Shown here piece by piece: positions 81 to 37,670 of a stretch of 64,000 nucleotides of DNA; position 1 is the stretch's first letter; each line of letters begins with the position of its first letter. A program made the translations under genes and the position numbers. The notes beneath the pieces were generated by a model that was given only the letters and a program-made list of their open reading frames with translations, had not been told where the DNA came from and searched no databases. This stretch comes from Eledone cirrhosa (Eukaryota), in contig OZ024752.1 in assembly GCA_964016885.1 (NCBI GenBank), forward strand, positions 42,718,001 to 42,782,000, in the 5' to 3' direction.

Positions 81-254
81 TAAGAATACAATACGTAAGT
101 AGGTCATTAGAATGACAGCAGTTTGAATAATGTACGCATGCGTGGGAATGTGGAAGCGTTGACTTCCGGTTCTATTTGTATATTCTATTGCTTGGCGTAC
201 TGAATGAGTAGGTTAGCGTATACACTGGTAATAATTGAAGAGAAAAAGGTCAGT
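43..254. promoter_or_regulatory. Candidate bidirectional promoter with non-coding first exon of NDST
   Basis: NRF1-like ACGCATGCGT (134-143) and ETS/GABP ACTTCCGGT (162-170). + strand donor AAG|GTCAGT at 248/249. - strand pyrimidine tract CTCTTCCTTTCTTCTC starting near 80. Confidence 0.5.
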
Positions 255-606
255 GCGCGTATATTTTTTTGGTGTATATCTCTTTTCATTCACTACTTAG
301 TATTTTTACTCCAATATATATATATATTGTATATATTTGGACAGTTTTATCATTTTTCCATCTATGTTTATCGTTGTTGTGTTTTTTTGGCAATTAGATT
401 ACCATTAATTACTGACGTGTGTGTGTGTGGTGATTCACAGGTGAAAACTATACATTAGATCTAGTTGTTTAGATGAGATGAAACAACATATTTGAAAATC
501 AAACATACACACACCGTCTAGTGAGTTCGTAAGAAGACTAACTGTATAAGATCGCCCTGCTGTTGAAGAAAAATGTTTAGTAGGGAAAATGCTAATGGTG
601 TGTGTA

Positions 607-654
<48 letters not shown>

Positions 655-656
<2 letters not shown>

Positions 657-872
657 TTCCGGGTTCAATCGGGGGTAACGCCAGTAAGTAAAGTACTCAA
701 TACATAGAGTATTTACAAGATTTAATACAGGAATGGCTTCTACAGGACTAGAACTATTTCATTCGAAGGAAATCATCAGGGCTTTCGTGATGATTTCATC
801 ATCAGTTCCTGATGATTTCATACAAATGAAACAGTTTTAGTCCTGTAGAAGCTTTTTCTATATTAAATCTTC
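655..872 (-). mobile_element. Family A hammerhead-bearing element (Penelope-like terminus) with inverted arm, within (TA)n
   Basis: Homologous to 7560-7710, 7776-7975 and 50978-51170. Inverted repeat about 722-870. Confidence 0.6.
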
Positions 873-873
873 G

Positions 874-907
<34 letters not shown>

Positions 908-1400
908 GGTAAAGAAATGTTACACTCTAATCAACATGTATTGAGTGCTTATTCAATTTATGTTTGAATATAAGTACAGGCAGATTTTGACAACAAATGT
1001 GATAGGTCTTATACAGCGGAAAATAGGATACTTAGAAGAAGGTGGGAACTATTTCAGATATGTACTTTGTTAGGCTTCGTGCTGTTTAGTTTGTCTATTA
1101 TTTTCGGGGTGTTTTGATCATATTTCCCTAATTATTATTACATATTTACTACTTTTCAGTTAACTTCTTCCCTTTCACTCGAGTTAAAATAATACGTTAC
1201 AATATATATATGTATATATATATATATACATTTGATCACACACATACATACATACATACATACATACATGCATGCATGCATGCATGCATGCATGTGTGTG
1301 ATGCCAAAATGGGACAAAAACTAGGAAGACTAGGTTTTATATATATATATATAAATGAAGGTATAGAAATTGTTTTAGCGAGAAGCTAATAGTATTCTAT

Positions 1401-1446
<46 letters not shown>

Positions 1447-1571
1447 GAGAAGAGGTTACAATATATATATATATTTATGTATGTCTTACCATTCTAACAA
1501 TGCTAAGTGAACAGCTTATTGGGCAATTCTTTAAGACGTCGTACCCTAATTCTCTCTCTCTACATACACAC

Positions 1572-1608
<37 letters not shown>

Positions 1609-1689
1609 CGAAGGAAATGTGGTAAGGAACCAGATGGACCATAACGCACCAAAGTACTCAATACTTAGGGTAGTAGAGTGGGTAATAGG

Positions 1690-1782
1690 AACGAGTAGGA
1701 CCCCGACGGCTGAGCTCAAGCCGTTTCGCCAGAATTAGCCGTCGAAACGGCTTGAGCTCAGCCGTCGGGGTCCCACTCGTTC
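1690..1782. repeat. Inverted repeat carrying the 3' half of a hammerhead (GAAACGGCT..AGCCGTC)
   Basis: About 38-bp arms. The element terminus at 1607-1690 recurs at 7983-8060, and a fragment lies near 38345-38390. Confidence 0.75.
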
Positions 1783-1849
1783 ATATATATATATATATAT
1801 ATATACACAATATATTAATAAATGGAAACTATATTTATAAAACCATATT

Positions 1850-1915
1850 TATTTTATTATACATATTTCAAGGGCAACCAAGGTAAATTATGGTGCGCTT
1901 TCATCAGATAAAATA
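1850..1915 (-). ncRNA. Type I hammerhead ribozyme motif (family B)
   Basis: Reverse complement reads TATTTTAT-CTGATGA-AAG..CTT-GAAA-TATGTATA-ATAAAATA. 8-bp stem I. Confidence 0.7.
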
Positions 1916-1989
1916 CAGATTTGTTTTATAAATAAATATTGACATACCCGGAAAAAAAGACAACCTTAACGGTTGGAGCTTCCTGGATA

Positions 1990-2039
<50 letters not shown>

Positions 2040-2634
2040 GTTTCTATTTTTGGCACAAGGCCAGCAAATATTTCGAAGGTAGAGAGAGAGAATTAGGGTG
2101 CGACTTCTTAAAGTACATTACTGGTATTTTATTTTATTGACCCCGTAAATATGAAAGGCAAAGTTATATATAATATATATAATATATATAATGTATTATG
2201 TATGTATATATAAGATATAGTCGTGGCTTGTTGCATTTGTAATACTGGCTCCTTTTTGCCCCTATTCACATTTCCACTGAGTGAGCGTAAACAGATTTCT
2301 GTGTGAAGAAATGGAAGTTATTTCAGATGAGCGTTCAAGAATCTCATGAATATGTTTTCGCCTTCACTTCAAAGAAATCCGTGTGTGGATTAATTACTAC
2401 CTTGTATTATTTTTCTTCTTTCATTGTTTAGCATTTTGTGTGTATGTCTGTATATATATATATAAATATATATCCTAGAAACGATCGTTAAATAATGAAC
2501 TTTTTTTGTTTAATATAAGGAACTGTTTCATTGTTTATTCATTATTTGTTTAATATTTTATATAAATATATATATATATATATATATTGTCTTTTTTTCC
2601 GGGTATGTCAATATTTATTTATAAAACAAATCTG

Positions 2635-2700
2635 TATTTTATCTGATGAAAGCGCACCATAATTTGCCTTGGTTGCCCTTGAAATATGTATAATAAAATA
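2635..2700 (+). ncRNA. Type I hammerhead ribozyme motif (family B)
   Basis: Stem I TATTTTAT/ATAAAATA, core CTGATGA..GAAA, stem II AAG/CTT, near-palindromic stem III, AUA cleavage triplet. Confidence 0.72.
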
Positions 2701-2869
2701 AATATAGTTTCCATTTATTAATATATTACGATCTGAGTTCAAATCCCGCCGAGGTTGACTTTGCCTTTCATCCTTACGGGGTCGATAAAATAAAGTACCA
2801 GTAATGCACTGGGTAATTTGCTGGCCTTGTGCCTAAAGTAGAAACAATTAATATATTATATATATATAT

Positions 2870-2919
<50 letters not shown>

Positions 2920-2959
2920 CAAAATATTAATAAATGAAGACGTTCACATAATCAAAATA

Positions 2960-3031
2960 TATGTTTTATTATATATATTTCGGAGGTAACTGTGTTGTTT
3001 TTCCAGTACGTCCTCATCAGATAAAATATAT
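2960..3031 (-). ncRNA. Type I hammerhead ribozyme motif (family C, left arm of inverted repeat)
   Basis: Mirror copy of 3103-3172: CTGATGA-GGA..TCC-GAAA-TATATAT-A-ATAAAA. Confidence 0.72.
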
Positions 3032-3102
3032 GAATTGATGTATGACATACCTCAACTGTGCTGATGGTTCAATTCCAGTATTGGCAGACAGTTGAGGTAT
3101 TC

Positions 3103-3172
3103 ATATATTTTATCTGATGAGGACGTACTGAAAAAACAGCACAGTACCTCCGAAATATATAACAAAATATAT
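3103..3172 (+). ncRNA. Type I hammerhead ribozyme motif (family C)
   Basis: ATATATTTTAT-CTGATGA-GGA-cGTACTG..CAGTACc-TCC-GAAA-TATAT-A-ACAAAATATAT. All three stems can be drawn. Confidence 0.78.
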
Positions 3173-3272
3173 TTTGATTGCGTTGAATGTCTATATTTAT
3201 TAATATTTTGAATTAATATATATATATATATATATATATAATGTATTGAAGTTTCCGTTGGAATTGTTTTAT

Positions 3273-3350
3273 ATTGCCTTGTCCGACGAACGAATGAGGA
3301 CGTTTCTTTCGTATTCGTTTTATTCGGGAAACCTCTGGTAATGAGGTAAT
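3273..3350 (+). ncRNA. Hammerhead-like motif with variant core (family E)
   Basis: 10-bp stem I ATTGCCTTGT/ATGAGGTAAT (with G.U pairs), core CCGACGA..GAAA, stem III ACC-tct-GGT, GUA triplet. Confidence 0.6.
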
Positions 3351-3449
3351 TATATTGTATTGTTTATTATACATTATATATATATATATAAAATAAAGTA
3401 CCAGTAATGCACTGGTTAATTGTGGCCTTGTGTCTAACGTAGAAACAAT

Positions 3450-3482
<33 letters not shown>

Positions 3483-3553
3483 TTGACGCTATAGTCACAT
3501 ATATTATGGAATACTGTTGGCTTCTTGCTACAATAATTTCTATACTTTTCATT

Positions 3554-3584
<31 letters not shown>

Positions 3585-3732
3585 GCTAATAAAGACTTTT
3601 GATGTATTGAAGGCTTCTTTGGTTTATTTTCATAATTCTTCGGCTCTGTTTAATTACATGAGCTATACTTTTACTGTCATTTCTATAATACGAAGAGGGT
3701 GTTTAACTCCAACACACTCTAGTATTTTAATT

Positions 3733-3782
<50 letters not shown>

Positions 3783-4067
3783 CGTGTGTGTGTAACAAAA
3801 ATATGTATGTTGCACACACGCACACAACTCGAATTTCTTGGCACAATTGTCACTTATAAATGCCTTTGGTGGATCTTAGACATTTCAAAGTAAATCGTGT
3901 GGACCTTTCCTAACTTATGAAATGATTTTCTATTTAGGTTGTCATTCAAACATACACATATCTCTGTGTATGTGTGAGCATGTTTGTATGTATAGATGTA
4001 TATGTGCGTACGGACGTACGCGTGTATATGCCCGTGTTATGCATGCTTCTATGTATAGATGTCTATA

Positions 4068-4100
<33 letters not shown>

Positions 4101-4451
4101 GTATATATGTGTGTGTATATATGTGTGTATATATGTGTGTATATATATATAGATGTATATGTGCGTACGGACGTACGCGTGTATATGCCCGTGTTATGCA
4201 TGCTTCTATGTATAGTTGTCTATATGTGTGTGTGTGTATATATATGTGTGTATATATGTGTGTGTATATATATATATAGATGTATATGTGTGTATGGATG
4301 ATAGATGTATGCGTGTATATGTTTGTGTTAATCATGCTTGTATGTATAGATGTTTATATGTGTGTGTATATATGTATTTATATATATTTGTATAGATGTT
4401 TATATGTGTGTATGGATGTATGCGTGTATATGTCTCTGAAGTGCATGTTTG

Positions 4452-4490
<39 letters not shown>

Positions 4491-4564
4491 ATATGGATGT
4501 GTGTGTGTGTGTGTGTCTCTGTTATGCATGTTTGCATGTATATGTATATATATATATGTGTGTG

Positions 4565-4595
<31 letters not shown>

Positions 4596-4827
4596 ATGGA
4601 TGTTCGCGAGTGTATACATGCTTGCTTGTATATATGTATGTCTATATATATATATCTGTATATATGTGGGTGTGCGCGTTCGTATTGAAACCAAATTAGT
4701 GTTTTTTAGTAAATTTGCTGATGAATGGAAAAAATTGTTGGATTTGATTCTATGAATGGTGTTAGTATTGGTGTTGATGGCGATGATGTTGGTGACAGCC
4801 CCCCCCCCACACACACACACATACACG

Positions 4828-4880
<53 letters not shown>

Positions 4881-5042
4881 CAAAATTTAGTACATCATCA
4901 TCGAAGCTTTGGTTGCACCCGAGCTAACGAATGCAATCTCGGTGTACAGCTAAGCACTCAATAGGGTATATTACCCTAGAGTTATAACATTACGTTTAGA
5001 CAGCTTTGCATACGTCAATATTATATATATATATATATATAT

Positions 5043-5176
5043 ATTATTATGTAATAAACAACATAAGGCAATTATTCCATTTACCAGTGGTTTCTTAAAA
5101 GCAAAAAACGTTTTTTGCTTTTAAGAAACCACTGGTAAATGGAATAATTGCCTTATGTTGTTTATTACATAATAAT
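5043..5176. repeat. Spacer-less palindrome (about 67-bp arms)
   Basis: Centre AAAAAAC|GTTTTTT at 5109/5110. Contains GAAACCACTGGTA, similar to the family E stem III. Confidence 0.9.
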
Positions 5177-5247
5177 AATAATTAAGCTCTGTTGCTTACA
5201 TAGAGCACTCTTTTTTCCTGGACTTTTCCGATGGAATTACTTCATTT

Positions 5248-5293
<46 letters not shown>

Positions 5294-5505
5294 TACGTAT
5301 CGAGAGAGATAAAAGGAGGGTTAGGTGATCATGTAGTTATTTCATGAAAGGAACGCTTTTTAGTTAGTTATTATACCCTTGAGAAGCCCATTCGGGCGAA
5401 GCGTTCCTTTCATGTAAGGAACGCTTTTTAGTTAGTTATTATGCCCATGAGAAGCCCATTCGGGCGAAACGTTTTAACTGTCTGTTCTGTATTTTACTTC
5501 TCCAC

Positions 5506-5549
<44 letters not shown>

Positions 5550-5733
5550 AAATGGGGAGAAGAATACTGCAGGTTGCACATGGATAACATGTTATAAAAT
5601 GAGTCCCTCATCAGTGATTTGCCGACGATCATAGATATTTCATTGCATTAATACTATATATATATATATATAATTATTGAGTAAAATGACAGGAGGCCGG
5701 TCTGGTGAAATTCCTTCAAAGATTTATTATAGC

Positions 5734-5795
5734 AAACACTATGTACATTTCATTGGCCAGGTTCCGTAAGATCCTGGTGACATCATCGGGCGTTT
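5734..5795 (-). ncRNA. Hammerhead-like motif with variant core (family H)
   Basis: Reverse complement reads AAACGC-CCGATGA-..CCAGG..CCTGG..-GAAA-TGTACAT-A-GTGTTT. Palindromic stem III. Confidence 0.6.
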
Positions 5796-5927
5796 ATTGC
5801 ATAACAGTTATATAATAAAGGTATAATGGTAAACACAATCCAAGAGGCTAAGAAAAACACACAGAGAAAAATGTTTTTGACTCAAAGGCGGTTAGGGCCA
5901 GTCAGTTTGTCCAAATCGTCCTTGTAT

Positions 5928-5995
<68 letters not shown>

Positions 5996-6275
5996 CATAT
6001 ATACAGGGAGTGTAACGTGTAGTTACTGTAGGTTCACCCGGGTGAGCACTCCATGTTTAGGTTCACATCAGTGTCGAGGTGTAGAGCTTTTTTTCATTAC
6101 CATTGTAAGGGTTCTAACGAGCCGCGGATTACAGAGTCGGGATAGATCGATACAGCTCGAACCTTGAGCTTAGTAGATACATATATATATATACATACAC
6201 ACACACCCACACATTATATATATATATATATACAATATTAAATAAATGGAAAACTATATTTATAAAACCATATTT

Positions 6276-6339
6276 ATTTCATTATATATATTTCGGGGAT
6301 ATCATATTAACAATATGCTATGCCTTCATCAGACAAAAT
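6276..6339 (-). ncRNA. Type I hammerhead ribozyme motif (family D, left arm)
   Basis: Mirror of 6500-6563 within the 378-bp palindrome. Confidence 0.65.
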
Positions 6340-6499
6340 ACAATATAAACAGTTTTATAGATAAATATATTCGACATACCGTAATAAACATCAACTTCAT
6401 TTGAAGAGGTTCACTCTAGCTAGAGTGAACCTCTTCAAATGAAGTTGATGTTTATTACGGTATGTCGAATATATTTATCTATAAAACTGTTTATATTGT

Positions 6500-6563
6500 A
6501 TTTTGTCTGATGAAGGCATAGCATATTGTTAATATGATATCCCCGAAATATATATAATGAAAT
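6500..6563 (+). ncRNA. Type I hammerhead ribozyme motif (family D)
   Basis: ATTTTGT-CTGATGA-AGG..CATATT/AATATG..CCC-GAAA-TATATAT-A-ATGAAAT. Related to family B. Confidence 0.65.
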
Positions 6564-6692
6564 GAATATGGTTTTATAAATATAGTTTTCCATTTATTTA
6601 ATATTGTAAATATACTCCAAGTATTTGTCGAGTGCTTTTATATCAGTTATAAATATTTACTAGTTGTAACCCACCAATTTTAAATATAACTT

Positions 6693-6742
<50 letters not shown>

Positions 6743-6963
6743 GTGTGTGTGTGTATATATATATATATGTGTATCTATTGTTATTGTGGTATATGTATGG
6801 CCACTAACTTCGGTTGTTTTTCTTGGTGTCACACTTTTTAACTGTTGTTTCCTCTCCAGACGGTAATGTATTAACATAACCGTTCTATTGAGTGCTTTGT
6901 GACTGCCTCAAACAACTCAAGTAGTATCTGCTATATAGTTGCTACAACTTCGTTTCATACCTA

Positions 6964-7008
<45 letters not shown>

Positions 7009-7016
7009 GATAAATC

Positions 7017-7054
<38 letters not shown>

Positions 7055-7236
7055 GATAAATCTACCAAGAGTTTACGGTAGTGTCCAATCCGTATGAAGA
7101 ACTCAATGTAATCCGGATATCATGGAAAGAAGAGATGCATTCAAAAATCACTTTCGGTGAAAGATAAACGGAATACAGAGTCAAGATAAAATATTAAAAA
7201 AATAATGAATAAAACAATATTAAACAAAAAAAGTGC

Positions 7237-7383
7237 ATTATTTAACGATCGTTTCTAGGACATATATGTGTTAGAATTGGCATGCATATTCAACAGATCT
7301 ATGTACAAAATTATACAAAATTATACAAACTATCAAATATAATATACATACCAACACATACATATGCCGTCTTCAGAAATAAT
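7237..7383 (-). ncRNA. Type I hammerhead motif with long stem II (family I)
   Basis: Reverse complement reads ATTATTT-CTGAAGA-cGGCATATGTATGTGTTGG...CTAACACATATATGTCcta-GAAA-CGATCG-TT-AAATAAT. A truncated + strand copy lies at about 2472-2550. Confidence 0.6.
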
Positions 7384-7404
7384 ATAAATATATAAATAAA
7401 TATC

Positions 7405-7445
<41 letters not shown>

Positions 7446-7708
7446 ATTAGAATACTGGAGCGTGTTGGGGTTAAACACCCTCTTCGTATTATAGAAATGA
7501 CAGTAAAAGGTATAGCTCAATGCAGTTAAACAGAGCCAAAAAACTATATATATATAGTTTTAATATAGATGAGATTCTACAGGACTAGAACTGTTTCATT
7601 CTTTAGAAATCATCAGGAATCAGAATCAGGAATATTAAAACTTTTATACTCTGCAATGTATTGAGTACCTTACTTACTGTGATTACCTCCGATTCAACCC
7701 GGAATAAC

Positions 7709-7779
<71 letters not shown>

Positions 7780-7895
7780 CAAACGGAGGGTATCCACACT
7801 AAGTAAGGTACTCTTTACATAGTAGAGTATATAATGTTTAATATAGAAATAGCTTCTACAGGACTCGAACTGTTTCATTCGAAGGAAATCATCAG

Positions 7896-7954
7896 GGATT
7901 TCCTGATGATTTCCTTTTTCCTTCGAATGAAACAGTTCTAGTCCTGTAGAAGCC
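7896..7954 (+). ncRNA. Type I hammerhead motif (family A)
   Basis: TTTC-CTGATGA-..TTC/GAA..-GAAA-CAG-ttctagtc-CTG-TA-GAAG. Stem III ACAG/CTGT, GUA triplet. Confidence 0.55.
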
Positions 7955-8071
7955 ATTTCTATATCAAACAATATATATATAAAACGAAGGAAGTGTGGTA
8001 AGGAACCAGATAGACCCATAACGCACCAGAGTACTCAATACTTAGGGTAGGTAATAGGAAAATGTTTTTCC

Positions 8072-8109
<38 letters not shown>

Positions 8110-8146
8110 AGGGTGTTAAAGTTTGCTTGAAGCATTGTGAAATGTG

Positions 8147-8308
8147 TAAAAATACGTATTTAAGAAAGCCACAACAATGCAAAGGGAAATCTCGAGGTAG
8201 GAAGTGAAATATAGATAGGAAAAACACCTGTTTTTCCTATCTATATTTCACTTCCTACCTCGAGATTTCCCTTTGCATTGTTGTGGCTTTCTTAAATACG
8301 TATTTTTA
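8147..8308. repeat. Palindrome (about 80-bp arms, 2-nt spacer)
   Basis: TAGGAAAAACA-cc-TGTTTTTCCTA centre, flanked by (TA)n. Confidence 0.9.
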
Positions 8309-10135
8309 TATATATATATATATATATATACTTAAAAATGTATAACATAATTATGATTATAATTACTCACACTAATATTATAATATTAGTACTACTGTTA
8401 TATATATATATACACACACACCATATGTGTGCGTGTATATATGTGTATATATACCGTCTGTGTATATATATGTACCGTATTTGTGTGTGTATATACATAC
8501 ACACCTCCAGAGACAGATTGTTGGCAAAGAAAATAATGTTTTATAACCGTTGCCCCTTCTTTTGTTTTATATTTTTGTTCCATAAATTTTACATAAAATA
8601 ATTTTAGAACGTTTTTGCGAGCACGTAATGTTTGTGTGATAGACGGACAAACAATCCAATACAATCATTATTATATAATAGAAAGTACCTAACAAACCTA
8701 TTCCGTTGCTTGTATCTAGCAGAGAAAGACGAGTAGAAAATATAATTTATGCTTAGCTAAGTATTTTTACTTCCCAAATCTGTTTATTTATGTTCGCAGT
8801 GTTTGTAGGAAATGTCACTAGCGAAAACTATCTCTCAAATTCTGAGGTTTATATTTATAAACGAGGGGATGATTAGGGCGTCACCTTTGAACATTTTATT
8901 CGCTGTTGATACGGACCTGTCATCTCTCCCCGTTTGGCGGGGAGACCTCCCACCCACACCAAAGTGGGCGGGAGGTGTCTTTTGTGAAAATAAAAAAAAA
9001 GAGAAAAGGGGGAAAAAAACCCAAAACGAAAATAACATTTCAAATATTGAAGGTCAATGGGAAGCAGATTATGGATAAGAAAATGAAAAAGAAAAGAGGA
9101 AACCAAGGAAGCTGTAATACATCTAGAAGTTTCTCTTGTTGAATCTTTTCCTAGCTTCCATGTACTCAAAGATTTTGTGTATATTTGGTAGACCTTTAGC
9201 ATTTAAACCGGCTGTACCTGGCCAGAATTCTCTCACCTCTTTCTGTTCAAACCAGCTGTTTGCGGCCCACACAAAGGTTTTTACAGCACAAGCATGTTTT
9301 ATCTTGGTAATATAAAATAAAAAAATTAGTTGTAATGTGTGCAATAGGTTTTCGTGGTGTGTAGCCCTCAGACAACACGTGACTCTCAGGGGACTCTTAG
9401 TTTGACGTGCTTGGGGAAAATGACCTTGCTTTTTCTGGTTGTTGTTTGTTGTTGTTATAGCCTTAAAACTGTTGTTCATCTTTTTCCTTTTCTTCTATGT
9501 TGAATAATACTATAGCAGGGGAAGTGACCTTAACATCCTTTTCTTCTATGTTGAATAATACTATAGCAAGGGAAGTGACCTTAACATCCTTTTCTTCTAT
9601 GTTGAATAATACTATAGCAGAGGAAGTGACCTTAACATCCTTATTCTTAGGGGAATGCTGACTGCTTAGAAGAATGGTTGTTCCATACTCAAAACATTTT
9701 ATACTATAGTGGAGGTGTCAGACAACAACAAAATCTAGTTGAACTAGTGAACTAGTGTGATTGTACTTGAAATAATTGTTTCTACTTTAGGCACAAGGCC
9801 AGCAATTACCCAGTGCATTACTGGTACTTTATTCTACCGACCCCGTAAGGATGAAAGGCAAAGTCAACCTCGGCGGGACTTGAACTTAGATGGTAATGTA
9901 CTGGGTATTTGCTGGCCTTGTGCCAAAAGTTGAAACAATTATTTATTTTGAGAACAATACCTTAACATCAGTATGAGCGGGTAGTTATGGCTGGTTTGAA
10001 CAGAAAGAAGTGAGAGAATTCTGGCTGGGTTATAGCTGGTTTAAATGCTAAAGGGTTAAATAGTAGCAGTCACTGAACAACGTTGTGACATCATAAAGGT
10101 TTTTTTTTTAAATAGTTCCCTTGAGGGCTCTACAG

Positions 10136-11042
10136 CAGTTGTTGCCCACCTTTCAGACTTCACGGACCACTAAATTCATGATATTAAATCGCGTGGACCA
10201 CTAATTTGAATTTTTTAAAAAAGATAAATAGATTTGTAAAATAATTGTTTCTACTTTTGGCACAAATCAGCCAGTGCATTACTGGTACTTTATTTTATCG
10301 ACCCCGTAAGGATGAAAGGCAAAGTTAACCTCGGCGGAATTTGAACTCAGATCATAAAGGGCCGTAACTCTATGCGTCAAAAGCATGGCGTCCGACCCTT
10401 TACCGATACTGCCAATCCCATCAAAGAACTTCCATTTTATTGATATGAAATGCACCAATTAAAACATTTTTTAGGGATGTTATAAAATATATTTTAACCA
10501 AATATTATTTATGTTTTATTATTAGTAAAACATAAGGTGCTGGATTGGCAGTATCGGTAGAGGGGCGGACGCTTTGCTTTGCAGCATAGAGTTATGGCCC
10601 TTTGCGGTCTGAGTTCAAATCCCGTTGAGGTTAACTTTGCTTTTCATTCTTACAGGGTCAATAAAATAAAGTACCAGTAACGTACTGGGGTCGATTTAAT
10701 CGACTTTCTCCTCACCCCAAATTTCTTGCCTTGTGCCTATACTAGAAATCATTATTATAAGGGTGGTGGATTGGCAGTATCGGTAGAGAGTCGGACACCA
10801 TGCTTTGATGCATAGAGTTACGGCCCTTGCCATTCTGAGTTTGAATCCCGCCGAGGTTAACTTTGCCTTTCATCCTTACGGGGTCGATAAAATAAAGTAC
10901 CAGTAATGCACTGGGTAATTGCTGGCCTTATGCCAAAAAGTAGAAACAATTATTAATAAAACATAAAAATTGCAAATAATGTCAAAATTTTTCTGCGGAC
11001 CACCAAATTTTTTTTTTTTGGACCACTGGTTGGCAACTGTTG
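10136..11042. mobile_element. hAT (Charlie-like) non-autonomous element containing three nested SINEs
   Basis: Imperfect TIRs CAGTTGTTGCCCACC / GGTTGGCAACTGTTG. 8-bp TSD CTCTACAG / CTCTACAC. SINEs at about 10243-10420 (-), 10535-10755 (+) and 10760-10955 (+). Confidence 0.6.
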
Positions 11043-11144
11043 CTCTACACACTACAACCTCCACATAAGCAGCATGTGGTTTTATCATAGCTGTTACCAG
11101 GTGTTAATTATAGCAATATATACTACAGTAACAAATGTTACAAT

Positions 11145-11678
11145 AATAATGTGATGCGTATGAAGGATGACAGCTGCATAAAAAGGTACAGAGCACTAGA
11201 AGCCAATGGAAACCGCGGAGTGGGGGAGACACAAGAAGACCTGGGATGAGGTGATAGGGGCCGACCTTACTCAGTTGCACCTCTCAAAGGCGATGACACA
11301 CGACCGTGACCTCTGGCGTCACGCAGTAATACAGAGTACCCGACCTCCCATGGGTACAAGCTGAAGCATATAGACAATATGCCCCTACACCCTCCCACTG
11401 CAAAGTGGTCGTGGAGGTGCCACGGCAAAAAAGCACCCAGCCCACACTGTAAAGTGGACGCGTAGGCGCCACGGAAAAAAGCACCCAGCACTCACTGTAA
11501 ATGAGGTTGGTGTTAGGAAGGGCATCCAGCTGTAGAAACCAAGCCAAAATCAGTTCCTGTATGAGCAAGGCATGGTCAGCCGACCAGACACTGCCCACAA
11601 CAGGACAACCAGTCTAACCCATGCTAGCATGGAAGAACGGACCTAAGACGGTGATGATGATGATGATGATGATGATGA
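11145..11678 (+). mobile_element. RTE-like LINE fragment fused to an RTE-tailed SINE body ending in (GAT)n
   Basis: Decayed VMRMKDD..GRHKKTW segment, then AGGAAGGGCATCCAGC and a GGACCTAAGACGG(TGA)n tail. Similar fragment at 57160-57310. Confidence 0.65.
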
Positions 11679-12584
11679 TTAAATAGATTTGTGATAAATT
11701 ATACCTTAAACATATTGAACTATGAAGCTATGCATGTATATACACATTATTGAAGCAATGCATACAAAAATGGCAATATAGTGGTATAATGCTGCATATA
11801 TATATGCACATTTTTAAGTAATGCATACAAAATCGTCCATGCTGTGGTATAATGCTACAATGAAGCTATGCACATTATTGAAGCAGCGCATACAAAATCG
11901 TCCATGATGTGGTATGATGCTACAATGAAGCTATGCACGTGTGTATGCAGTTGTATAATGCTGCAATGAAGCTATGCATGTATATGCACATTATTGAAGC
12001 AGTGCATACAAAAACGTCCATGCAGTTGTATGATGCTCCATTGAAGCTATGCATGTGTGTACATACTGTAGAAGAGCTCAAAGAACTTAAGACTAAGTGA
12101 AACATATCAAATGCATATGTTCGAAGCAGGTGCATGTTTTATAAGTTCATGTTAATAAAAGACCAAATTCACTACTATGTTATCTTTTAATGTTAAAAGA
12201 TTTCAAATGTATCATCACCACCACCACCACCACCACTATCATCATCATCACTATCATCATCACCACCACCATCACCACTATCATCATCACCACCATCACC
12301 ACCACTATCATCATCATCACTACCATCATCATATGTCTGCTTTTCCAGCAGTGCTTGCATTCCCTTGTCATCTCCTTTATACAGGATCAATTCTCACTAC
12401 TTCTACCCAGGTCTTCCTTTGTCTTCCTATACTGCAGCTGCCTTCTGCTGTGATCTCTTGGCACTTCTTTACTCAACAATAACTAGACACAACTACATTG
12501 GTTACTGACTATATGAACAATCAAACTGGGCAATTTGTGTTTTGATATAAATTGTTTGCATAAGAGAAATCCTATAGTTTATAT

Positions 12585-15500
12585 TAACCCTTTAGCATTT
12601 AAACCAACTGTATCTGACCAGAACTCTCTCACCTCTTTCTGTTTAAACTGGTTGTATCCAGTCAGAACTCTCACTTCTTTCTGTTTAAACCAACTGTATC
12701 TGACCAGAACCCTCTCACCTCTTTCTGTTTAAACCGGCTGTTTCCAGTCAGAACTCTCACTTCTTTCTGTTTAAACCAACTGTATCCAGTCAGAACTCTC
12801 ACTTCTTTCTGTTTAAACCAACTGTATCTGACCAGAACCCTCTCACCTCTTTCTGTTTAAACCGGCTGTATCCAGTCAGAACTCTCACTTCTTTCTGTTT
12901 AAACCAACTGTATCTGACCAGAACTCTCTCACCTCTTTCTGTTTAAACCAACTGTATCTGACCAGAACTCTCTCACCTCTTTCTGTTTAAACCAACTGTA
13001 TCTGACCAGAACTCTCTCACCTCTTTCTGTTTAAACCAACTGTATCTGACCAGAACCCTCTCACCTCTTTCTGTTTAAACCGGTTGTATCCAGTCAGAAC
13101 TCTCACTTCTTTCTGTTTAAACCAACTGTATCTGACCAGAACCCTCTCACCTCTTTCTGTTTAAACCGGTTGTATCCAGTCACAACTCTCACTTCTTTCT
13201 GTTTAAACCAACTGTATCTGACCAGAACTCTCTCACCTCTTTCTGTTTAAACCAACTGTATCTGACCAGAACTCTCTCACCTCTTTCTGTTTAAACCAAC
13301 TGTATCTGACCAGAACTCTCTCACCTCTTTCTGTTTAAACCAACTGTATCTGACCAGAACTCTCTCACCTCTTTCTGTTTAAACCAACTGTATCTGACCA
13401 GAACCCTCTCACCTCTTTCTGTTTAAACCGGTTGTATCCAGTCAGAACTCTCACTTCTTTCTGTTTAAACCAACTGTATCTGACCAGAACTCTCTCACCT
13501 CTTTCTGTTTAAACCAACTGTATCTGACCAGAACTCTCTCACCTCTTTCTGTTTAAACCAACTGTATCTGACCAGAACTCTCTCACCTCTTTCTGTTTAA
13601 ACCAACTGTATCTGACCAGAACCCTCTCACCTCTTTCTGTTTAAACCGGTTGTATCCAGTCAGAACTCTCACTTCTTTCTGTTTAAACCAACTGTATCTG
13701 ACCAGAACCCTCTCACCTCTTTCTGTTTAAACCGGTTGTATCCAGTCACAACTCTCACTTCTTTCTGTTTAAACCAACTGTATCTGACCAGAACTCTCTC
13801 ACCTCTTTCTGTTTAAACCAACTGTATCTGACCAGAACTCTCTCACCTCTTTCTGTTTAAACCAACTGTATCTGACCAGAACTCTCTCACCTCTTTCTGT
13901 TTAAACCAACTGTATCTGACCAGAACTCTCTCACCTCTTTCTGTTTAAACCAACTGTATCTGACCAGAACCCTCTCACCTCTTTCTGTTTAAACCGGTTG
14001 TATCCAGTCAGAACTCTCACTTCTTTCTGTTTAAACCAACTGTATCTGACCAGAACTCTCTCACCTCTTTCTGTTTAAACCAACTGTATCTGACCAGAAC
14101 TCTCTCACCTCTTTCTGTTTAAACCAACTGTATCTGACCAGAACTCTCTCACCTCTTTCTGTTTAAACCAACTGTATCTGACCAGAACTCTCTCACCTCT
14201 TTCTGTTTAAACCAACTGTATCTGACCAGAACCCTCTCACCTCTTTCTGTTTAAACCGGTTGTATCCAGTCAGAACTCTCACTTCTTTCTGTTTAAACCA
14301 ACTGTATCTGACCAGAACTCTCTCACCTCTTTCTGTTTAAACCAACTGTATCTGACCAGAACTCTCTCACCTCTTTCTGTTTAAACCAACTGTATCTGAC
14401 CAGAACCCTCTCACCTCTTTCTGTTTAAACCGGTTGTATCCAGTCAGAACTCTCACTTCTTTCTGTTTAAACCAACTGTATCTGACCAGAACTCTCTCAC
14501 CTCTTTCTGTTTAAACCAACTGTATCTGACCAGAACTCTCTCACCTCTTTCTGTTTAAACCAACTGTATCTGACCAGAACTCTCTCACCTCTTTCTGTTT
14601 AAACCAACTGTATCTGACCAGAACTCTCTCACCTCTTTCTGTTTAAACCAACTGTATCTGACCAGAACCCTCTCACCTCTTTCTGTTTAAACCGGTTGTA
14701 TCCAGTCAGAACTCTCACTTCTTTCTGTTTAAACCAACTGTATCTGACCAGAACCCTCTCACCTCTTTCTGTTTAAACCGGTTGTATCCAGTCAGAACTC
14801 TCACTTCTTTCTGTTTAAACCAACTGTATCTGACAAGAACTCTCTCACCTCTTTCTGTTTAAACCAACTGTATCTGACCAGAACTCTCTCACCTCTTTCT
14901 GTTTAAACCAACTGTATCTGACCAGAACTCTCTCACCTCTTTCTGTTTAAACCAACTGTATCTGACCAGAACTCTCTCACCTCTTTCTGTTTAAACCAAC
15001 TGTATCTGACCAGAACCCTCTCACCTCTTTCTGTTTAAACCGGTTGTATCCAGTCAGAACTCTCACTTCTTTCTGTTTAAACCAACTGTATCTGACCAGA
15101 ACTCTCTCACCTCTTTCTGTTTAAACCAACTGTATCTGACCAGAACTCTCTCACCTCTTTCTGTTTAAACCAACTGTATCTGACCAGAACTCTCTCACCT
15201 CTTTCTGTTTAAACCAACTGTATCTGACCAGAACCCTCTCACCTCTTTCTGTTTAAACCGGTTGTATCCAGTCAGAACTCTCACTTCTTTCTGTTTAAAC
15301 CAACTGTATCTGACCAGAACCCTCTCACCTCTTTCTGTTTAAACCGGTTGTATCCAGTCACAACTCTCACTTCTTTCTGTTTAAACCAACTGTATCTGAC
15401 CAGAACTCTCTCACCTCTTTCTGTTTAAACCAACTGTATCTGACCAGAACTCTCTCACCTCTTTCTGTTTAAACCAACTGTATCTGACCAGAACTCTCTC

Positions 15501-17920
15501 ACCTCTTTCTGTTTAAACCAACTGTATCTGACCAGAACTCTCTCACCTCTTTCTGTTTAAACCAACTGTATCTGACCAGAACCCTCTCACCTCTTTCTGT
15601 TTAAACCGGTTGTATCCAGTCAGAACTCTCACTTCTTTCTGTTTAAACCAACTGTATCTGACCAGAACTCTCTCACCTCTTTCTGTTTAAACCAACTGTA
15701 TCTGACCAGAACTCTCTCACCTCTTTCTGTTTAAACCAACTGTATCTGACCAGAACTCTCTCACCTCTTTCTGTTTAAACCAACTGTATCTGACCAGAAC
15801 TCTCTCACCTCTTTCTGTTTAAACCAACTGTATCTGACCAGAACCCTCTCACCTCTTTCTGTTTAAACCGGTTGTATCCAGTCAGAACTCTCACTTCTTT
15901 CTGTTTAAACCAACTGTATCTGACCAGAACTCTCTCACCTCTTTCTGTTTAAACCAACTGTATCTGACCAGAACTCTCTCACCTCTTTCTGTTTAAACCA
16001 ACTGTATCTGACCAGAACCCTCTCACCTCTTTCTGTTTAAACCGGTTGTATCCAGTCAGAACTCTCACTTCTTTCTGTTTAAACCAACTGTATCTGACCA
16101 GAACTCTCTCACCTCTTTCTGTTTAAACCAACTGTATCTGACCAGAACTCTCTCACCTCTTTCTGTTTAAACCAACTGTATCTGACCAGAACTCTCTCAC
16201 CTCTTTCTGTTTAAACCAACTGTATCTGACCAGAACTCTCTCACCTCTTTCTGTTTAAACCAACTGTATCTGACCAGAACCCTCTCACCTCTTTCTGTTT
16301 AAACCGGTTGTATCCAGTCAGAACTCTCACTTCTTTCTGTTTAAACCAACTGTATCTGACCAGAACCCTCTCACCTCTTTCTGTTTAAACCGGTTGTATC
16401 CAGTCAGAACTCTCACTTCTTTCTGTTTAAACCAACTGTATCTGACAAGAACTCTCTCACCTCTTTCTGTTTAAACCAACTGTATCTGACCAGAACTCTC
16501 TCACCTCTTTCTGTTTAAACCAACTGTATCTGACCAGAACTCTCTCACCTCTTTCTGTTTAAACCAACTGTATCTGACCAGAACTCTCTCACCTCTTTCT
16601 GTTTAAACCAACTGTATCTGACCAGAACCCTCTCACCTCTTTCTGTTTAAACCGGTTGTATCCAGTCAGAACTCTCACTTCTTTCTGTTTAAACCAACTG
16701 TATCTGACCAGAACTCTCTCACCTCTTTCTGTTTAAACCAACTGTATCTGACCAGAACTCTCTCACCTCTTTCTGTTTAAACCAACTGTATCTGACCAGA
16801 ACTCTCTCACCTCTTTCTGTTTAAACCAACTGTATCTGACCAGAACTCTCTCACCTCTTTCTGTTTAAACCAACTGTATCTGACCAGAACCCTCTCACCT
16901 CTTTCTGTTTAAACCGGTTGTATCCAGTCAGAACTCTCACTTCTTTCTGTTTAAACCAACTGTATCTGACCAGAACCCTCTCACCTCTTTCTGTTTAAAC
17001 CGGTTGTATCCAGTCAGAACTCTCACTTCTTTCTGTTTAAACCAACTGTATCTGACCAGAACTCTCTCACCTCTTTCTGTTTAAACCAACTGTATCTGAC
17101 CAGAACTCTCTCACCTCTTTCTGTTTAAACCAACTGTATCTGACCAGAACTCTCTCACCTCTTTCTGTTTAAACCAACTGTATCTGACCAGAACCCTCTC
17201 ACCTCTTTCTGTTTAAACCGGTTGTATCCAGTCAGAACTCTCACTTCTTTCTGTTTAAACCAACTGTATCTGACCAGAACTCTCTCACCTCTTTCTGTTT
17301 AAACCAACTGTATCTGACCAGAACCCTCTCACCTCTTTCTGTTTAAACCGGTTGTATCCAGTCAGAACTCTCACTTCTTTCTGTTTAAACCAACTGTATC
17401 TGACCAGAACTCTCTCACCTCTTTCTGTTTAAACCAACTGTATCTGACCAGAACTCTCTCACCTCTTTCTGTTTAAACCAACTGTATCTGACCAGAACTC
17501 TCTCACCTCTTTCTGTTTAAACCAACTGTATCTGACCAGAACCCTCTCACCTCTTTCTGTTTAAACCGGTTGTATCCAGTCAGAACTCTCACTTCTTTCT
17601 GTTTAAACCAACTGTATCTGACCAGAACCCTCTCACCTCTTTCTGTTTAAACCGGTTGTATCCAGTCAGAACTCTCACTTCTTTCTGTTTAAACCAACTG
17701 TATCTGACCAGAACTCTCTCACCTCTTTCTGTTTAAACCAACTGTATCTGACCAGAACTCTCTCACCTCTTTCTGTTTAAACCAACTGTATCTGACCAGA
17801 ACTCTCTCACCTCTTTCTGTTTAAACCAACTGTATCTGACCAGAACTCTCTCACCTCTTTCTGTTTAAACCAACTGTATCTGACCAGAACTCTCTCACCT
17901 CTTTCTGTTCAAATCAGCTG
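12585..17920 (+). repeat. 44/42-bp minisatellite (about 120 monomers) derived from the MITE left end
   Basis: Starts with the MITE TIR TTAACCCTTTAGCA. Monomers TTTAAACCAACTGTATCTGACCAGAACTCTCTCACCTCTTTCTG and TTTAAACCGGTTGTATCCAGTCAGAACTCTCACTTCTTTCTG. Confidence 0.95.
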
Positions 17921-18589
17921 TTGTTAAACTACTTGGGAAAATTCCTATGAGGTTGTAAACCGTAGCAATAACTATAATAATATGAATGTGTAAATGTTTA
18001 AAATCCAATCCAATACCATCTTAATGTAAATTAACCCTTTTAATAGCAAACCAGTTGAAACCACCTCTGGTTTAATGATAAAAAAAACCCTTTAGCATTT
18101 AAACCGGTCGTATCTGACCAAAACTCTATCATCTCTTTCTGTTTACCTGGAGATGAGGGTTGCACATTTTTTCAGGGGTATGTGTTACCCATATAAACTG
18201 TCTCCCCCTATTGGGGAAAATCGACTAATTTTTTTAATTACATTTGTGATAACATTTTACACGTTTTTATTGTATGTAAACTTCCCCCTTTGTATTTGTC
18301 CCCTTCTTTTGTGCCCCTGTGGCTAATAAAGAAACATATCATCTCTTGGCTGTATCTGGTTGCTCATACCTACATTAAGGTATTGTTCTCAAAATAAATA
18401 ACATCAATATCTCACAGCTTGAATGTGAGATGATTATGTAAGGTAAAGCCTTTACCATGAAAATACTATAGTAAATATAGAATAAGGTAAATGCTAAAGG
18501 TTAATTACTGAAATGGGGAAGTAAGGATAATATTTTAATAATTTATTTCTAGGATATAATTGCACAATTGTTCAGCAAATAATTAATTG

Positions 18590-18815
18590 TTAACCCGTTA
18601 GCATTTACATTACTTTATATTTATTATTGTATTTTCATGGTAAAAACTTTATTTCACATAATTATCTTACATAATATCGAATCTACGAAATTTTGATATT
18701 ATTTATTTTGAGAACAATACCTTAACATAAATATGAGTAGCAGTTACGGCCGCTTTGAACAGAAAGAGGTAGAGAATTCTGGCCTGTTATAGCCAGTTTA
18801 AATGCTAAATGGTTA
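18590..18815 (-). mobile_element. TTAA/piggyBac-type MITE copy
   Basis: TTAACCCGTTAGCATTTA...TAAATGCTAAATGGTTAG. Reverse of the 29176-29403 copy. Confidence 0.75.
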
Positions 18816-18976
18816 GTAATTGTTAAAGTCCTTTTGTCACACCCTGTAACCTTATAACAATTGTCTTCTGTATCTCCTATTCGTCCACACTTATTCCATT
18901 TTTCTGTCTTCTTTTAGAGCCTTATGCCTGGATGTTGTGTACACATTTCACTATTTCTTTCTGTTTCATATTGCAG

Positions 18977-19339
18977 AACTCCCTGAAAGAGAACAAGCAT
19001 TCAATTCAATACATTTGGTGTATTAAGAAAAAGAAAAGGAAAAAACAAACACAAAACAAAACAAACAAACAACAACAACAATAAAAGATGGATTTTGGAA
19101 TAGAAGATAGTATATTGTTTGTTACTATGTCTAAGCTATAAATATAAACCAATATTTTTTTGAACTGTATAAAAAAGGTAAACTATGAATTTAGAAATCA
19201 GCTTAACAGTTTTGGTGTCATTAAATACAGCATGTTAATTATACATCACTGGCAACCACCTTGAAGCTTGTGTCTGAAGAATTAGAGCTATTTTGACTTG
19301 TGTATTTATTACATCACCCACCTCCACCAAACAAACAGC
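18977..19339 (+). other. NDST: Probable 5' UTR part of the first NDST coding exon, with short uORFs
   Basis: Polypyrimidine tract plus ttgcag ending at 18976 (alternative acceptor ttttag ending at 18917). Unique non-repeat sequence up to the ATG. Upstream ATGs at 19088, 19185 and 19232. Confidence 0.55.
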
Positions 19340-20344
19340 ATGTATAGTAGACGCTGTTTCGTTTGGTTAAAAAATAGTCTTGTGTGGAAAAGTAATTTCC
19401 GCAAATGTTCATGGACGAAGATTCTGATAGCATTATTCAGTCTATCGTCATTAAGTTTCCTTGCATATCAATGTTTTAATGTACATTCTAATGTGAAAAG
19501 ACACGAGATTCCCGTGTCGACGATTGAATGCCGCTTGAATCCTATTAGTGGCGGCATGTTTAGCCCTAGTGATCATTCCTCCAACAATAATCATCGCATA
19601 GACAACAAAGTTCTTGTCATTGTGGAGACTCAATATTCATATCTTGGACAGGAAATCATCTATTTACTAGAAGCAATACGGGTAAAATACAAAATTGAGC
19701 CGAATGGCAAGACACTGCCATATTTAACACATGGAGATAAAGGAAAGTACAGCACTATAATATTTGAAAATTTCGAGGCTTATGTTAACATGGACGCTTG
19801 GAATAGAGAACTACTTGACAAATACTGTCGAGATTTTAACGTAGGAATTATATCTTTTTTTGCAAGTCGAGATAACTCTGCTTATGCTAAACGAATTAAA
19901 GACTTTCCCCTCACGATTTACCAATACATGGCAATCGAAGATTACGAACTTAATCCCATGTCAAATATATGGCGGATTACGCGACCTGGAGAAATAATCC
20001 GAGGACCTTTAAAAGATGATGAATGGGTCTTATTCCAATTTGAACATGCAACTTATAAACCACTTTCTTATGCCAAACTGTCAAGGAATTACAGACGCTA
20101 CTCAAAACTTTCTGGAAACGCTGTCTTTCCAGCTATCCAAGATTTGGGACTTCTGGATGGAATACAGAAAGTTATTTTTGGGAACGGATTAAGATTCTGG
20201 CTCCATTGCCTTATGTTCCTAGATAGCCTGTCCTACCTGTCACATGGGAAGCTGAGTACACCTTTAGATCGTTATGTTCTCATTGACATTGATGATGTCT
20301 TTGTTGGAGCGGCTGGCAAACGGATGAAAGCCTCTGATGTTCAT
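19340..20344 (+). CDS. NDST: Heparan sulfate N-deacetylase/N-sulfotransferase (NDST/sulfateless), first coding exon
   Basis: ATG at 19340, 335 codons. N-terminal hydrophobic type II anchor (ILIALFSLSSLSFLAY). NDST motifs VLVIVETQYS, LPYLT..DKGKY..IIFEN, WNRELLDKYC, QDLGLLDGIQKVIFGN.L.FWLH, LDRYVLIDIDDVFVG. Ends at CAT|GTAAGT, phase 0. Confidence 0.96.
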
Positions 20345-20477
20345 GTAAGTATCTATATATATATATAAATTTCTGTGATACTGTAACGACATGTAAAGAG
20401 AGAGGAGTAGTTTGACTACCTCATACTACTCCTCTCTCTTAATATAGGTTAAAGGTTAAAGCTAAATATTTCTCATA

Positions 20478-33322: not shown

Positions 33323-34099
33323 TTAACCCTTTAGCATTTAAACCAGCCATATCTGGCTAGAATTCGCTCACCCCATTCTCTTCAAACCAGCTGTAACCGG
33401 CCACTCATACTTATGTTAAGGTATTCTCAAAATAAATAATATCAAAATCTCATTGGTTCAATATTATGTAAGATAATTATGTTAGGTAAAGCCTTTACTG
33501 CGACCTCATTCTCTTCAAACCAGCTGTAACCGGCCACTCATACTTATGTTAAGGTATTGTATTGTTCTCAAAATAAATAATATCAAAATCTCATTGATTC
33601 AATATTATGTAAGATAATTATGTTAGGTAAAGCCTTTACTGTGACCTCATTCTCTTCAAACCAGCTGTAACCGGCCACTCATACTTATGTTAAGGTATTG
33701 TATTGTTCTCAAAATAAATATCAAAATCTCATTGATTCAATAGTATGTAAGATAATTATGTTAGGTAAAGCCTTTACTGCGACCTCATTCTCTTCAAACC
33801 AGCTGTAACCGGCCACTCATACTTATGTTAAGGTATTGTTCTCAAAATAAATAATATCAAAATCTCATTGATTCAATAGTATGTAAGATAATTATGTTAG
33901 GTAAAGCCTTTACTGCGACCTCATTCTCTTCAAACCAGCTGTAACCGGCCACTCATACTTATGTTAAGGTATTGTTCTCAAAATAAATAATATCAAAATC
34001 TCATTGATTCAATAGTATGTAAGATAATTATGTTAGGTAAAGCCTTTACTGCGAAAATACAATAGTATATATAGAGTAATGTAAATGCTAAGGGGTTAA
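33323..34099 (+). mobile_element. TTAA MITE whose interior (about 130-140 bp) is repeated five times
   Basis: Left TIR at 33323, five CATTCTCTTCAAACC...GCCTTTACTG units, then the right TIR. Confidence 0.85.
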
Positions 34100-37000: not shown

Positions 37001-37670
37001 ATGCTAAGGGGTTAATGTAAATACAATAGTATATATAGAGTAATGTAAATGCTAAGGGGTTAATGTAAATACAATAGTATATATAGAGTAATGTAAATGC
37101 TAAGGGGTTAATGTAAATACAATAGTATATATAGAGTAATGTAAATGCTAAGGGGTTAATGTAAATACAATAGTATATATAGAGTAATGTAAATGCTAAG
37201 GGGTTAATGTAAATACAATAGTATATATAGAGTAATGTAAATGCTAAGGGGTTAATGTAAATACAATAGTATATATAGAGTAATGTAAATGCTAAGGGGT
37301 TAATGTAAATACAATAGTATATATAGAGTAATGTAAATGCTAAGAGGTTAATGTAAATACAATAGTATATATAGAGTAATGTAAATGCTAAGGGGTTAAT
37401 GTAAATACAATAGTGTATATAGAGTAATGTAAATGCTAAGGGGTTAATGTAAATACAATAGTATATATAGAGTAATGTAAATACAATAGTATATATAGAG
37501 TAATGTAAATGCTAAGGGGTTAATCTAAATACAATAGTATATATAGAGTAATGTAAATGCTAAGGGGTTAATGTAAATACAATAGTATATATAGAGTAAT
37601 GTAAATGCTAAGGGGTTAATGTAAATACAATAGTATATATAGAGTAATGTAAATGCTAAGGGGTTAATGT
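34055..37670 (+). repeat. 48-bp minisatellite (about 75 copies) made of the MITE right end including TIR and TTAA
   Basis: Unit AAATACAATAGTATATATAGAGTAATGTAAATGCTAAGGGGTTAATGT. Confidence 0.95.

Follow-up and report, generated by a model that had tools for sequence, protein, structure and literature searches.

Type I hammerhead motifs in an NDST intron of Eledone cirrhosa, their probable origin from Hydra-clade Penelope-like elements, and a conserved hairpin near the insertion ends

Introduction

Penelope-like elements (PLEs) of the Hydra clade are defined by an RWK-like motif, a DKT motif, a CxCX5C linker, and CxxC and CxH motifs around E/N, with no CCHH motif (PMC8557442). One member, Hydra-1_Obim of Octopus bimaculoides, prefers (TA)n targets and carries a hammerhead ribozyme (Craig et al. 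2021, PMC8557442). Hammerheads with a palindromic stem III have been described that cleave slowly as dimers, and the hammerheads in the same report conserve the pair G10.1-C11.1 (PMC4209133). For the Poseidon PLE of Anolis, the reverse transcriptase (RT) starts at two internal sites, downstream RNA is needed, and the hammerhead is assisted by protein and dispensable for insertion in vitro (PMC11167929). Non-LTR (long terminal repeat) retrozymes, finally, consist of tandem monomers of 150-450 bp that each contain a hammerhead, and reach up to 120,000 copies in axolotl (PMC7229834; bioRxiv 10.64898/2026.07.22.740005). Here, we analyse a cluster of hammerhead-like motifs embedded in (TA)n at positions 650..8310 of a 64,000-nucleotide stretch of DNA from Eledone cirrhosa (contig OZ024752.1, positions 42,718,001 to 42,782,000; hereafter 'the window').

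The ribozyme motifs of the cluster are real. They very probably represent type I hammerheads in the pseudo-long terminal repeats (pLTRs) of Hydra-clade PLEs, so that the cluster would be a pile of 5′-truncated, often fold-back insertions that seven families have left in the (TA)n tracts of an NDST intron, probably with no function for the host. What stands out here is the abundance of the motifs and a conserved hairpin; the clade, the hammerhead and the (TA)n targeting have already been published (PMC8557442).

Results

Hammerhead motifs and their controls

The original prediction listed ten motifs between 650 and 8310, and all of them fold as type I hammerheads at the positions claimed, with C(U/C)GANGA, GAAA and NUH in type I order and with three helices. 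Their C3 and H17 nucleotides lie at 1907/1858 (-), 2643/2692 (+), 3020/2970 (-), 3114/3161 (+), 3283/3340 (+), 5789/5740 (-), 6332/6283 (-), 6507/6556 (+), 7376/7244 (-) and 7903/7948 (+). An eleventh hammerhead, absent from the earlier list, is found at 7616/7578 (-). A strict descriptor matches four of the ten listed motifs, eight if a mismatch is tolerated at the first stem II pair, and nine without stem II. The final descriptor, which was tuned post hoc on data already seen, finds nine of the ten and the motif at 7616-, and misses 5789-. No descriptor alone catches every motif, and all ten are recovered only by several descriptors together.

The prediction had proposed dinucleotide shuffling and stem covariation as checks, and both came out in its favour. 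Island-wise dinucleotide shuffling (500 shuffles per setting, 300 with the final descriptor) gave means of 0-0.018 matches and a maximum of 1. With the final descriptor, four decoy cores yielded 0, 0, 0 and 1 matches, and the remaining 55.7 kb of the window yielded 1. For the covariation test, motifs were found via the core and stem III alone and stem I was scored afterwards; this stem-I-blind detection was chosen because it avoids circularity. Across 24 recurrent types, with noise types kept in, 65% (0.653) of stem I positions are paired, versus 40.5±3.9% with partners swapped, and 0 of 5000 swaps equalled the observed value.

Parent elements and clade

The islands had been interpreted as termini of at least six PLE families that lack open reading frames (ORFs). 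We count seven such families (F1 to F7), inserted in (TA)n, and a search of flanking sequence for ORFs with RT and a GIY-YIG endonuclease (EN) linked five of them (F1, F3, F4, F6 and F7) to such frames elsewhere in the genome. The islands of every family are repeats dispersed through the genome, where each search gave 670-2,099 first-look candidates. The copies begin at varying 5′ positions, are often joined in inverted orientation and terminate in (TA)n on the 3′ side. The 5′ truncation, the tandem and inverted copies and the tail at one end are as expected of PLEs.

The most complete parent is that of F3. Its locus L239 comprises a hammerhead (183), an intact frame of 738 amino acids with RT and GIY-YIG (419-2632), a further ~1.6 kb and a second hammerhead (4302), all in the sense orientation. 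A single ORF, with RT and with GIY-YIG at its C-terminus, is thus enclosed by pLTRs that carry hammerheads. All 86 of the 86 scored matches to this ORF have 98-100% identity, and many are intact; judged by these sequences, F3 is a young family. Three intact F3 units occur in tandem with a period of 4011 bp (C7:78452852-78462361, L326-L328), which is the arrangement expected for expression and for hammerhead dimers. Among the other families, the hammerhead end of F1 lies after a frameshifted RT/EN, the EN C-terminus is found upstream on the same strand in four F4 loci (L067, L068, L082 and L240), and the start of the ORF lies downstream in 3 of 25 F6 loci (L115, L117 and L132). For longer copies of F7, 15 of 30 loci contain RT/EN matches. 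Most of these are situated in inverted arms; L351 and L371 have matches upstream on the same strand. F2 has stems I and III in common with F1 and F3, and all three have a near-identical palindromic stem III.

The F3 ORF contains RWR, DKT, CxCX5C (as CNCRDRSKC), CxxC-E (as CDLC-AEE) and CxH (as CKH), has no cysteines inside GIY..YIG, and belongs to an element inserted in (TA)n, as in the Hydra clade. Neither the CX2-5CxxC linker nor the endonuclease CCHH of Neptune and Nematis is present in it, and a Neptune identity of the endonuclease, which had been our first assumption, was dropped on these motifs. By the sequence motifs of F3, the elements are very probably Hydra-clade Penelope-like retrotransposons, a kind already known, in octopus too, because Hydra-1_Obim has been published with (TA)n preference and a hammerhead. 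A homologue search with the F3 ORF returned mostly unnamed matches, the named cephalopod ones being from Argonauta hians.

Two further observations concern individual families. An apparently intact two-ORF non-LTR element (L243:3876-9122; 595 and 1153 amino acids, endonuclease/RT-like) lies between two F1 ends. Most copies of F7 (window 7779-7977; L244-L273) end within ~20 nt of the hammerhead 5′ edge, which may be a transcript start or a point of RT stalling and fold-back. A fixed fold-back junction that had seemed to characterize F7 proved to be partly a query bias, as an unbiased sample gave varied junctions near the hammerhead 5′ edge.

Insertion ends and a conserved hairpin

In the F1/F2/F3 superfamily, most 3′ ends are found +48-56 or +138-151 nt after the site of predicted cleavage, and each arm of an inverted pair usually has one of these two classes. 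The ribozyme cut therefore does not set the insertion end. The two classes fit the two RT start sites and the 'tail' described for Poseidon (PMC11167929). In eight of eight families (with an additional family, F8, described below), copies either pass into (TA)n or run on into a hairpin of the form RCUC...GAGY, with a mode 4-8 nt from the anchors; F7 and F8 also hold 18 and 72 unclassed contexts, respectively, in this test. A second hairpin stands directly behind the long end of F3 and F6 as well, and is seen only in those contexts that continue in the direction of the ORF (16 of 52 for F3, 3 of 20 for F6). By eye, two hairpins precede the ATG in each of the four families in which an intact 5′ junction was seen, and the duplicated hairpin is also present at L239:294-400. 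In the window, hairpin 1 of F3 occupies 6614..6635 (+), ~7 nt behind the short insertion end, and further copies start at 924+, 5186+, 7648+, 710-, 1679-, 4982- and 7828-.

In a noisy set of 33 hairpin types that includes antisense matches, the outer pair covaries (A-U 14, G-C 12, A-C 6, G-U 1; Fisher p 0.0009), whereas covariation of the inner stem is weak (0.495 vs 0.376, 20 of 5000). Inspection by eye of published coral and sea-cucumber consensus sequences (PMC8557442) places the hairpin behind the hammerhead in Hydra-2_Amil and Hydra-2_Ajap and shows two of them before the ATG in Hydra-1_Ajap; the remaining three Hydra consensus sequences have looser variants. It is likely that the hairpin sets the position at which reverse transcription starts. 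A description of this hairpin was not found in the literature searched, with most subscription papers outside its scope, nor does the word 'hairpin' occur in the main text of PMC8557442.

Genomic context and abundance

A 360-amino-acid frame (19286-20368) encodes NDST (Pfam HSNSD_N, E 2e-77). One contig of one run (X4, kind of run unrecorded) joins position 248 to 18977, and the cluster therefore lies in an intron of the 5′ untranslated region (UTR). This intron (249..18976, +, GT...AG) is the first one detected, in agreement with the presumed location of the cluster. It is flanked by a 5′-UTR exon, of which 207..248 (+) is seen with a GT donor at 249, and by an exon at 18977..20344 (+), which has an ATG at 19340 and whose 3′ end is predicted from a GT donor at 20345. 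For four of the five sense motifs the core is predicted to be fully paired (P ~1.0) with an antisense arm transcribed earlier, and for the fifth, 3283+, stem I is predicted to form at only ~0.1 in context. Most hammerheads would thus be sequestered in the NDST pre-mRNA.

A background sample of 40 stretches of 10 kb, at round coordinates that were chosen and not random, contains 41 motifs with the final descriptor, with a maximum of 5 per stretch and shuffled totals of 0, 1, 0 and 0. This density of ~1 hammerhead per 10 kb extrapolates, in a genome of 3.0 Gb, to ~3.1×10^5 hammerheads (bootstrap 2.0-4.3×10^5). The exact pattern of the F1/F2/F3 superfamily alone has 58,642 genome matches, while its reversed-pattern control has 0. 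Within 260 nt downstream, (TA)4+ is found for 38 of the 41 background hammerheads. With 1.75 additional motifs per 10 kb in the flanks of hammerhead loci, clustering is both general and mild. A census of octopus hammerheads was not found in the literature searched, again with most subscription papers outside its scope, and 'ribozyme' has 0 occurrences in PMC13282606.

The cluster had been called a ribozyme hotspot. The high local density stands, as ten motifs in 7.66 kb correspond to ~13 times the background, but the special status that the term implies does not: since the whole genome is rich in the motifs, the tail of the distribution is expected to include pile-ups as large as this one, and most of the sense copies are predicted to be unable to fold in the pre-mRNA. 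As a rough extrapolation, a negative binomial fit to the 40 stretches gives ~8 windows with at least 10 motifs and ~290 with at least 7; counted as ~7-8 independent insertions, ~90-290 such pile-ups are expected per genome. Within this genome, the cluster is nothing out of the ordinary.

The palindromic stem III bears on activity. It is a perfect palindrome in 27 of the 41 background hits, and no stable self-hairpin is predicted for it in five of six window families (F7 having a 4-bp stem), in keeping with the slow cleavage by dimers described in PMC4209133. By analogy with related PLEs, the majority of these hammerheads would be slow, acting as dimers or with help from protein, in the service of the element's own RNA.

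Organization of the cluster

The first F1 hammerhead (1850..1915, -, C3 1907) has an AUA triplet and lies within a 5′-truncated pLTR at ~1805-1990; the second (2635..2700, +, C3 2643) is an inverted match to 1840-1963 at 98%. An F2 fold-back insertion (2916..3211) includes two hammerheads, one at C3 3020 (-) and one, with a degenerate stem III, at C3 3114 (+). The F4 hammerhead (3273..3350, +, H17 3340) has a GUA triplet and the CCGACGA core found family-wide, and the F5 hammerhead (5732..5797, -, C3 5789) belongs to a family whose remaining copies mostly have a CUGAUGA core. An F3 fold-back insertion (6225..6698) consists of a short arm (6225-6419, -, C3 6332) and a long arm (6420-6698, +, C3 6507), the latter differing from the 3′ pLTR of the intact element L239 at 3 of 279 nt. 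The F6 terminus (7052..7411, -) has a tail and includes a hammerhead (7237-7383, C3 7376) with a GUU triplet and a long stem II insert. F7 is represented by the extra hammerhead (7572..7622, -, C3 7616), by a fold-back insertion (7779..7977) whose hammerhead (7896-7954, +, C3 7903) has a 4-bp stem III and a GUA triplet, and by a second fold-back insertion (654..874) with a rearranged junction, in which cores at 779-, 805- and 809+ fail the descriptor.

Other islands contain half-motifs without CUGANGA (1609-1785, 2466-2565 and 5045-5177). The first is a fold-back terminus of F8, cut off within stem II, that retains only GAAAC, stem III and GUC; the last is part of a fold-back terminus of another hammerhead family (5045..5253), also cut off within stem II and with a tail. 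F8 (window 1609-1785 and 7982-8070) is very abundant, occurring in 12 of the 40 background stretches, mostly cut off within stem II; in two longer copies stem III is long, the triplet is GUC and the core is a variant one, which makes them candidates for a monomer-active hammerhead parent. Several islands are not hammerheads: 2040-2164, 2729-2846 and 3392-3447 match one very abundant repeat, which we take to be a short interspersed element (SINE). The island 5546-5654 is a repeat (9 loci, ≤97% identity) in which GAAA stands ahead of CUGAUGA on the minus strand, and no convincing hammerhead fold was found there despite this CUGAUGA. The island 906-1201 contains the conserved hairpin at 924 and has no match among the loci fetched; it is possibly an old Hydra 5′ region.

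Perfect palindromes with arms of 68-195 bp occur at 5045-5177, 6225-6614 and 8142-8313, all in the transcribed intron. They are likely to form double-stranded RNA, and could possibly be ADAR substrates. Farther downstream, the window contains long minisatellite arrays at 12598-17921, 34055-37670, 39002-47224 and 60462-62324, with periods of 44, 48, 42 and 41 nt.

Discussion

Other explanations of the cluster need to be weighed. Several stems I are almost all A-U, the Rfam models give the motifs no score, and the descriptor was adjusted once the data had been seen, all of which would suit chance folding of AT-rich, palindromic sequence. However, this idea, to which we give practically no credence, has already been refuted by the near-zero counts in shuffles and decoy cores, by the stem-I-blind covariation (0/5000) and by the reversed-pattern control (0 vs 58,642). 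A role in the host is very improbable, though less so than chance: sense hammerheads might cleave the NDST pre-mRNA, alone or as heterodimers of neighbouring families, or the fold-backs might be ADAR substrates that tune splicing or expression. The cluster sits in a transcribed intron at ~13 times the background density, five of its motifs are sense (one of them, 3283+, without an antisense partner), the near-identical stem III of F1, F2 and F3 is palindromic, and the fold-backs could give perfect duplexes of up to 195 bp. Yet the predicted folds place four of the five sense cores in full pairing with the upstream antisense arm and leave 3283+ with little stem I; in addition, the F3 insertion, only 3 of 279 nt away from an intact element, is recent and therefore not an old conserved feature, and the expected tail of the distribution covers such pile-ups. 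On these predictions, a host role is unlikely.

Whether some families are non-autonomous is a related question. The islands had also been described as retrozyme-type, but we found no tandem hammerhead monomers in 650-8310, and the parents that we found are autonomous elements; lacking tandem monomers, the motifs are therefore not retrozymes. A further reading, which we consider improbable, makes F7 and F8, and perhaps also F2 and F5, non-autonomous units of a retrozyme-like kind, spread in the form of short RNAs or circles by PLE proteins. A 35-mer of F7 has 3,337 exact genome matches; by eye, only 2 of 30 unbiased F7 loci visibly run into the parent's upstream sequence, most stopping near the hammerhead 5′ edge; and, in the 25 contexts inspected out of 81, most copies of F8 end at much the same place within stem II. 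On the other hand, the junctions vary from copy to copy, the tandem monomers that define non-LTR retrozymes were not found, and the longer F7 copies adjoin RT/EN fragments in half of the loci.

A number of points also weigh against the reading that we favour, of type I hammerheads from Hydra-clade PLEs. An Rfam scan of the window gave no match at the gathering score, and no hammerhead was among the best 150 of 185 matches by E-value. Some copies are degenerate: in 3114+ stem III is shortened and stem I contains a mismatch, and 5789- has a weak stem II base. Within the flanks fetched, an ORF link was found for F2 in 0 of 25 loci, and no correctly placed ORF match for F5 in 25+10 loci. Pfam assigned no family to the F3 ORF and gave, for F1, only a GIY-YIG match below threshold; the Hydra motifs were checked on a full ORF for F3 only, and the placement is based on these motifs and on a by-eye comparison with published alignment rows. 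At positions 10.1-11.1, only 1 of the 41 background hits has G-C and 17 have U.U, most having U.U or A-U. This may lower activity, which is uncertain because of this departure from the conserved G10.1-C11.1. Finally, the numbers of TA tracts and hammerheads in the 40 stretches are not significantly correlated (rho 0.22, p 0.18), and target abundance alone therefore does not explain the pile-up.

With the PLE origin taken as given, the insertion ends and the hairpin suggest a mechanism. The RT/GIY-YIG protein would bind the hairpin, nick (TA)n and start reverse transcription inside its own RNA, a few nt 5′ of the hairpin. Two hairpins would then give the short and long ends after the predicted cleavage site. 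Copying would halt early and often fold back, as a consequence of which only the hammerhead-bearing end would remain, and each insertion would leave flanking TA as a fresh target. More generally, Hydra PLEs, from coral and sea cucumber to octopus, might keep, as another conserved RNA element next to the hammerhead, a duplicated 5′-UTR hairpin of the form RCUC-(inner stem)-NN-GAGY-RC, which a telomerase-related RT binds and from which it starts a few nt upstream, setting both insertion ends and the PLE 'tail', in a genome that would be among the most ribozyme-dense known. Our confidence in this combined proposal, taken as a whole, is evenly balanced.

The value of these observations lies in their scale and in the hairpin, not in the NDST locus. 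One superfamily alone accounts for the 58,642 exact matches, and an estimated ~2-4×10^5 hammerheads in all belong to a kind that the Rfam models miss in the window. If the proposal is true, this genome, where some 3×10^5 hammerheads are estimated and where the ORFs of a young family are intact, would be a ready system in which to reconstitute the reaction. The hairpin just behind both ends provides a sharply testable model of how a telomerase-related RT selects its start site, an open point in PLE transposition, and the young family is at hand for testing it.

Comparison with known systems

The Eledone elements resemble the Hydra-clade PLEs of PMC8557442 in their C-terminal GIY-YIG, in RW(K/R), DKT, CxCX5C, CxxC and CxH, in the absence of CCHH, in their insertion into (TA)n and in a hammerhead near the 3′ end. 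However, in that report Hydra PLEs comprise 'a small number' of extra families and are generally <3 kb, whereas we find many families, one of them very young, 10^4-10^5 copies, and a 4.0-kb unit with a ~1.6-kb 3′ region. The motifs also resemble previously described hammerheads (PMC4209133; review, PMC6765202) in being type I, with a short palindromic stem III and many families per genome, and in occurring mostly as solo copies, with some opposite-strand pairs 100-700 bp apart. They differ from these in a longer stem I (8-10 bp in most), in the usual U.U or A-U at 10.1-11.1 in place of G-C, and in counts far above the 2,000-9,000 per genome described there. Like non-LTR retrozymes, they are type I hammerheads in animal repeats and related to PLE pLTRs, but where retrozymes form tandem monomers, the Eledone motifs sit in truncated ends of coding elements, either solo or as fold-backs. 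With the Poseidon PLE of Anolis (Frangieh et al. 2024, PMC11167929), the Eledone elements share AT-rich targets and, judging from the insertion ends, probably also two internal RT start sites that give rise to a 'tail'. Poseidon belongs to another clade, and its start sites lie inside the ORF, in an AC-rich stem-loop, 30-40 nt apart. In Eledone it is the 5′ UTR that contains the two ends; they are separated by ~90 nt, and one copy of the conserved hairpin follows directly after each.

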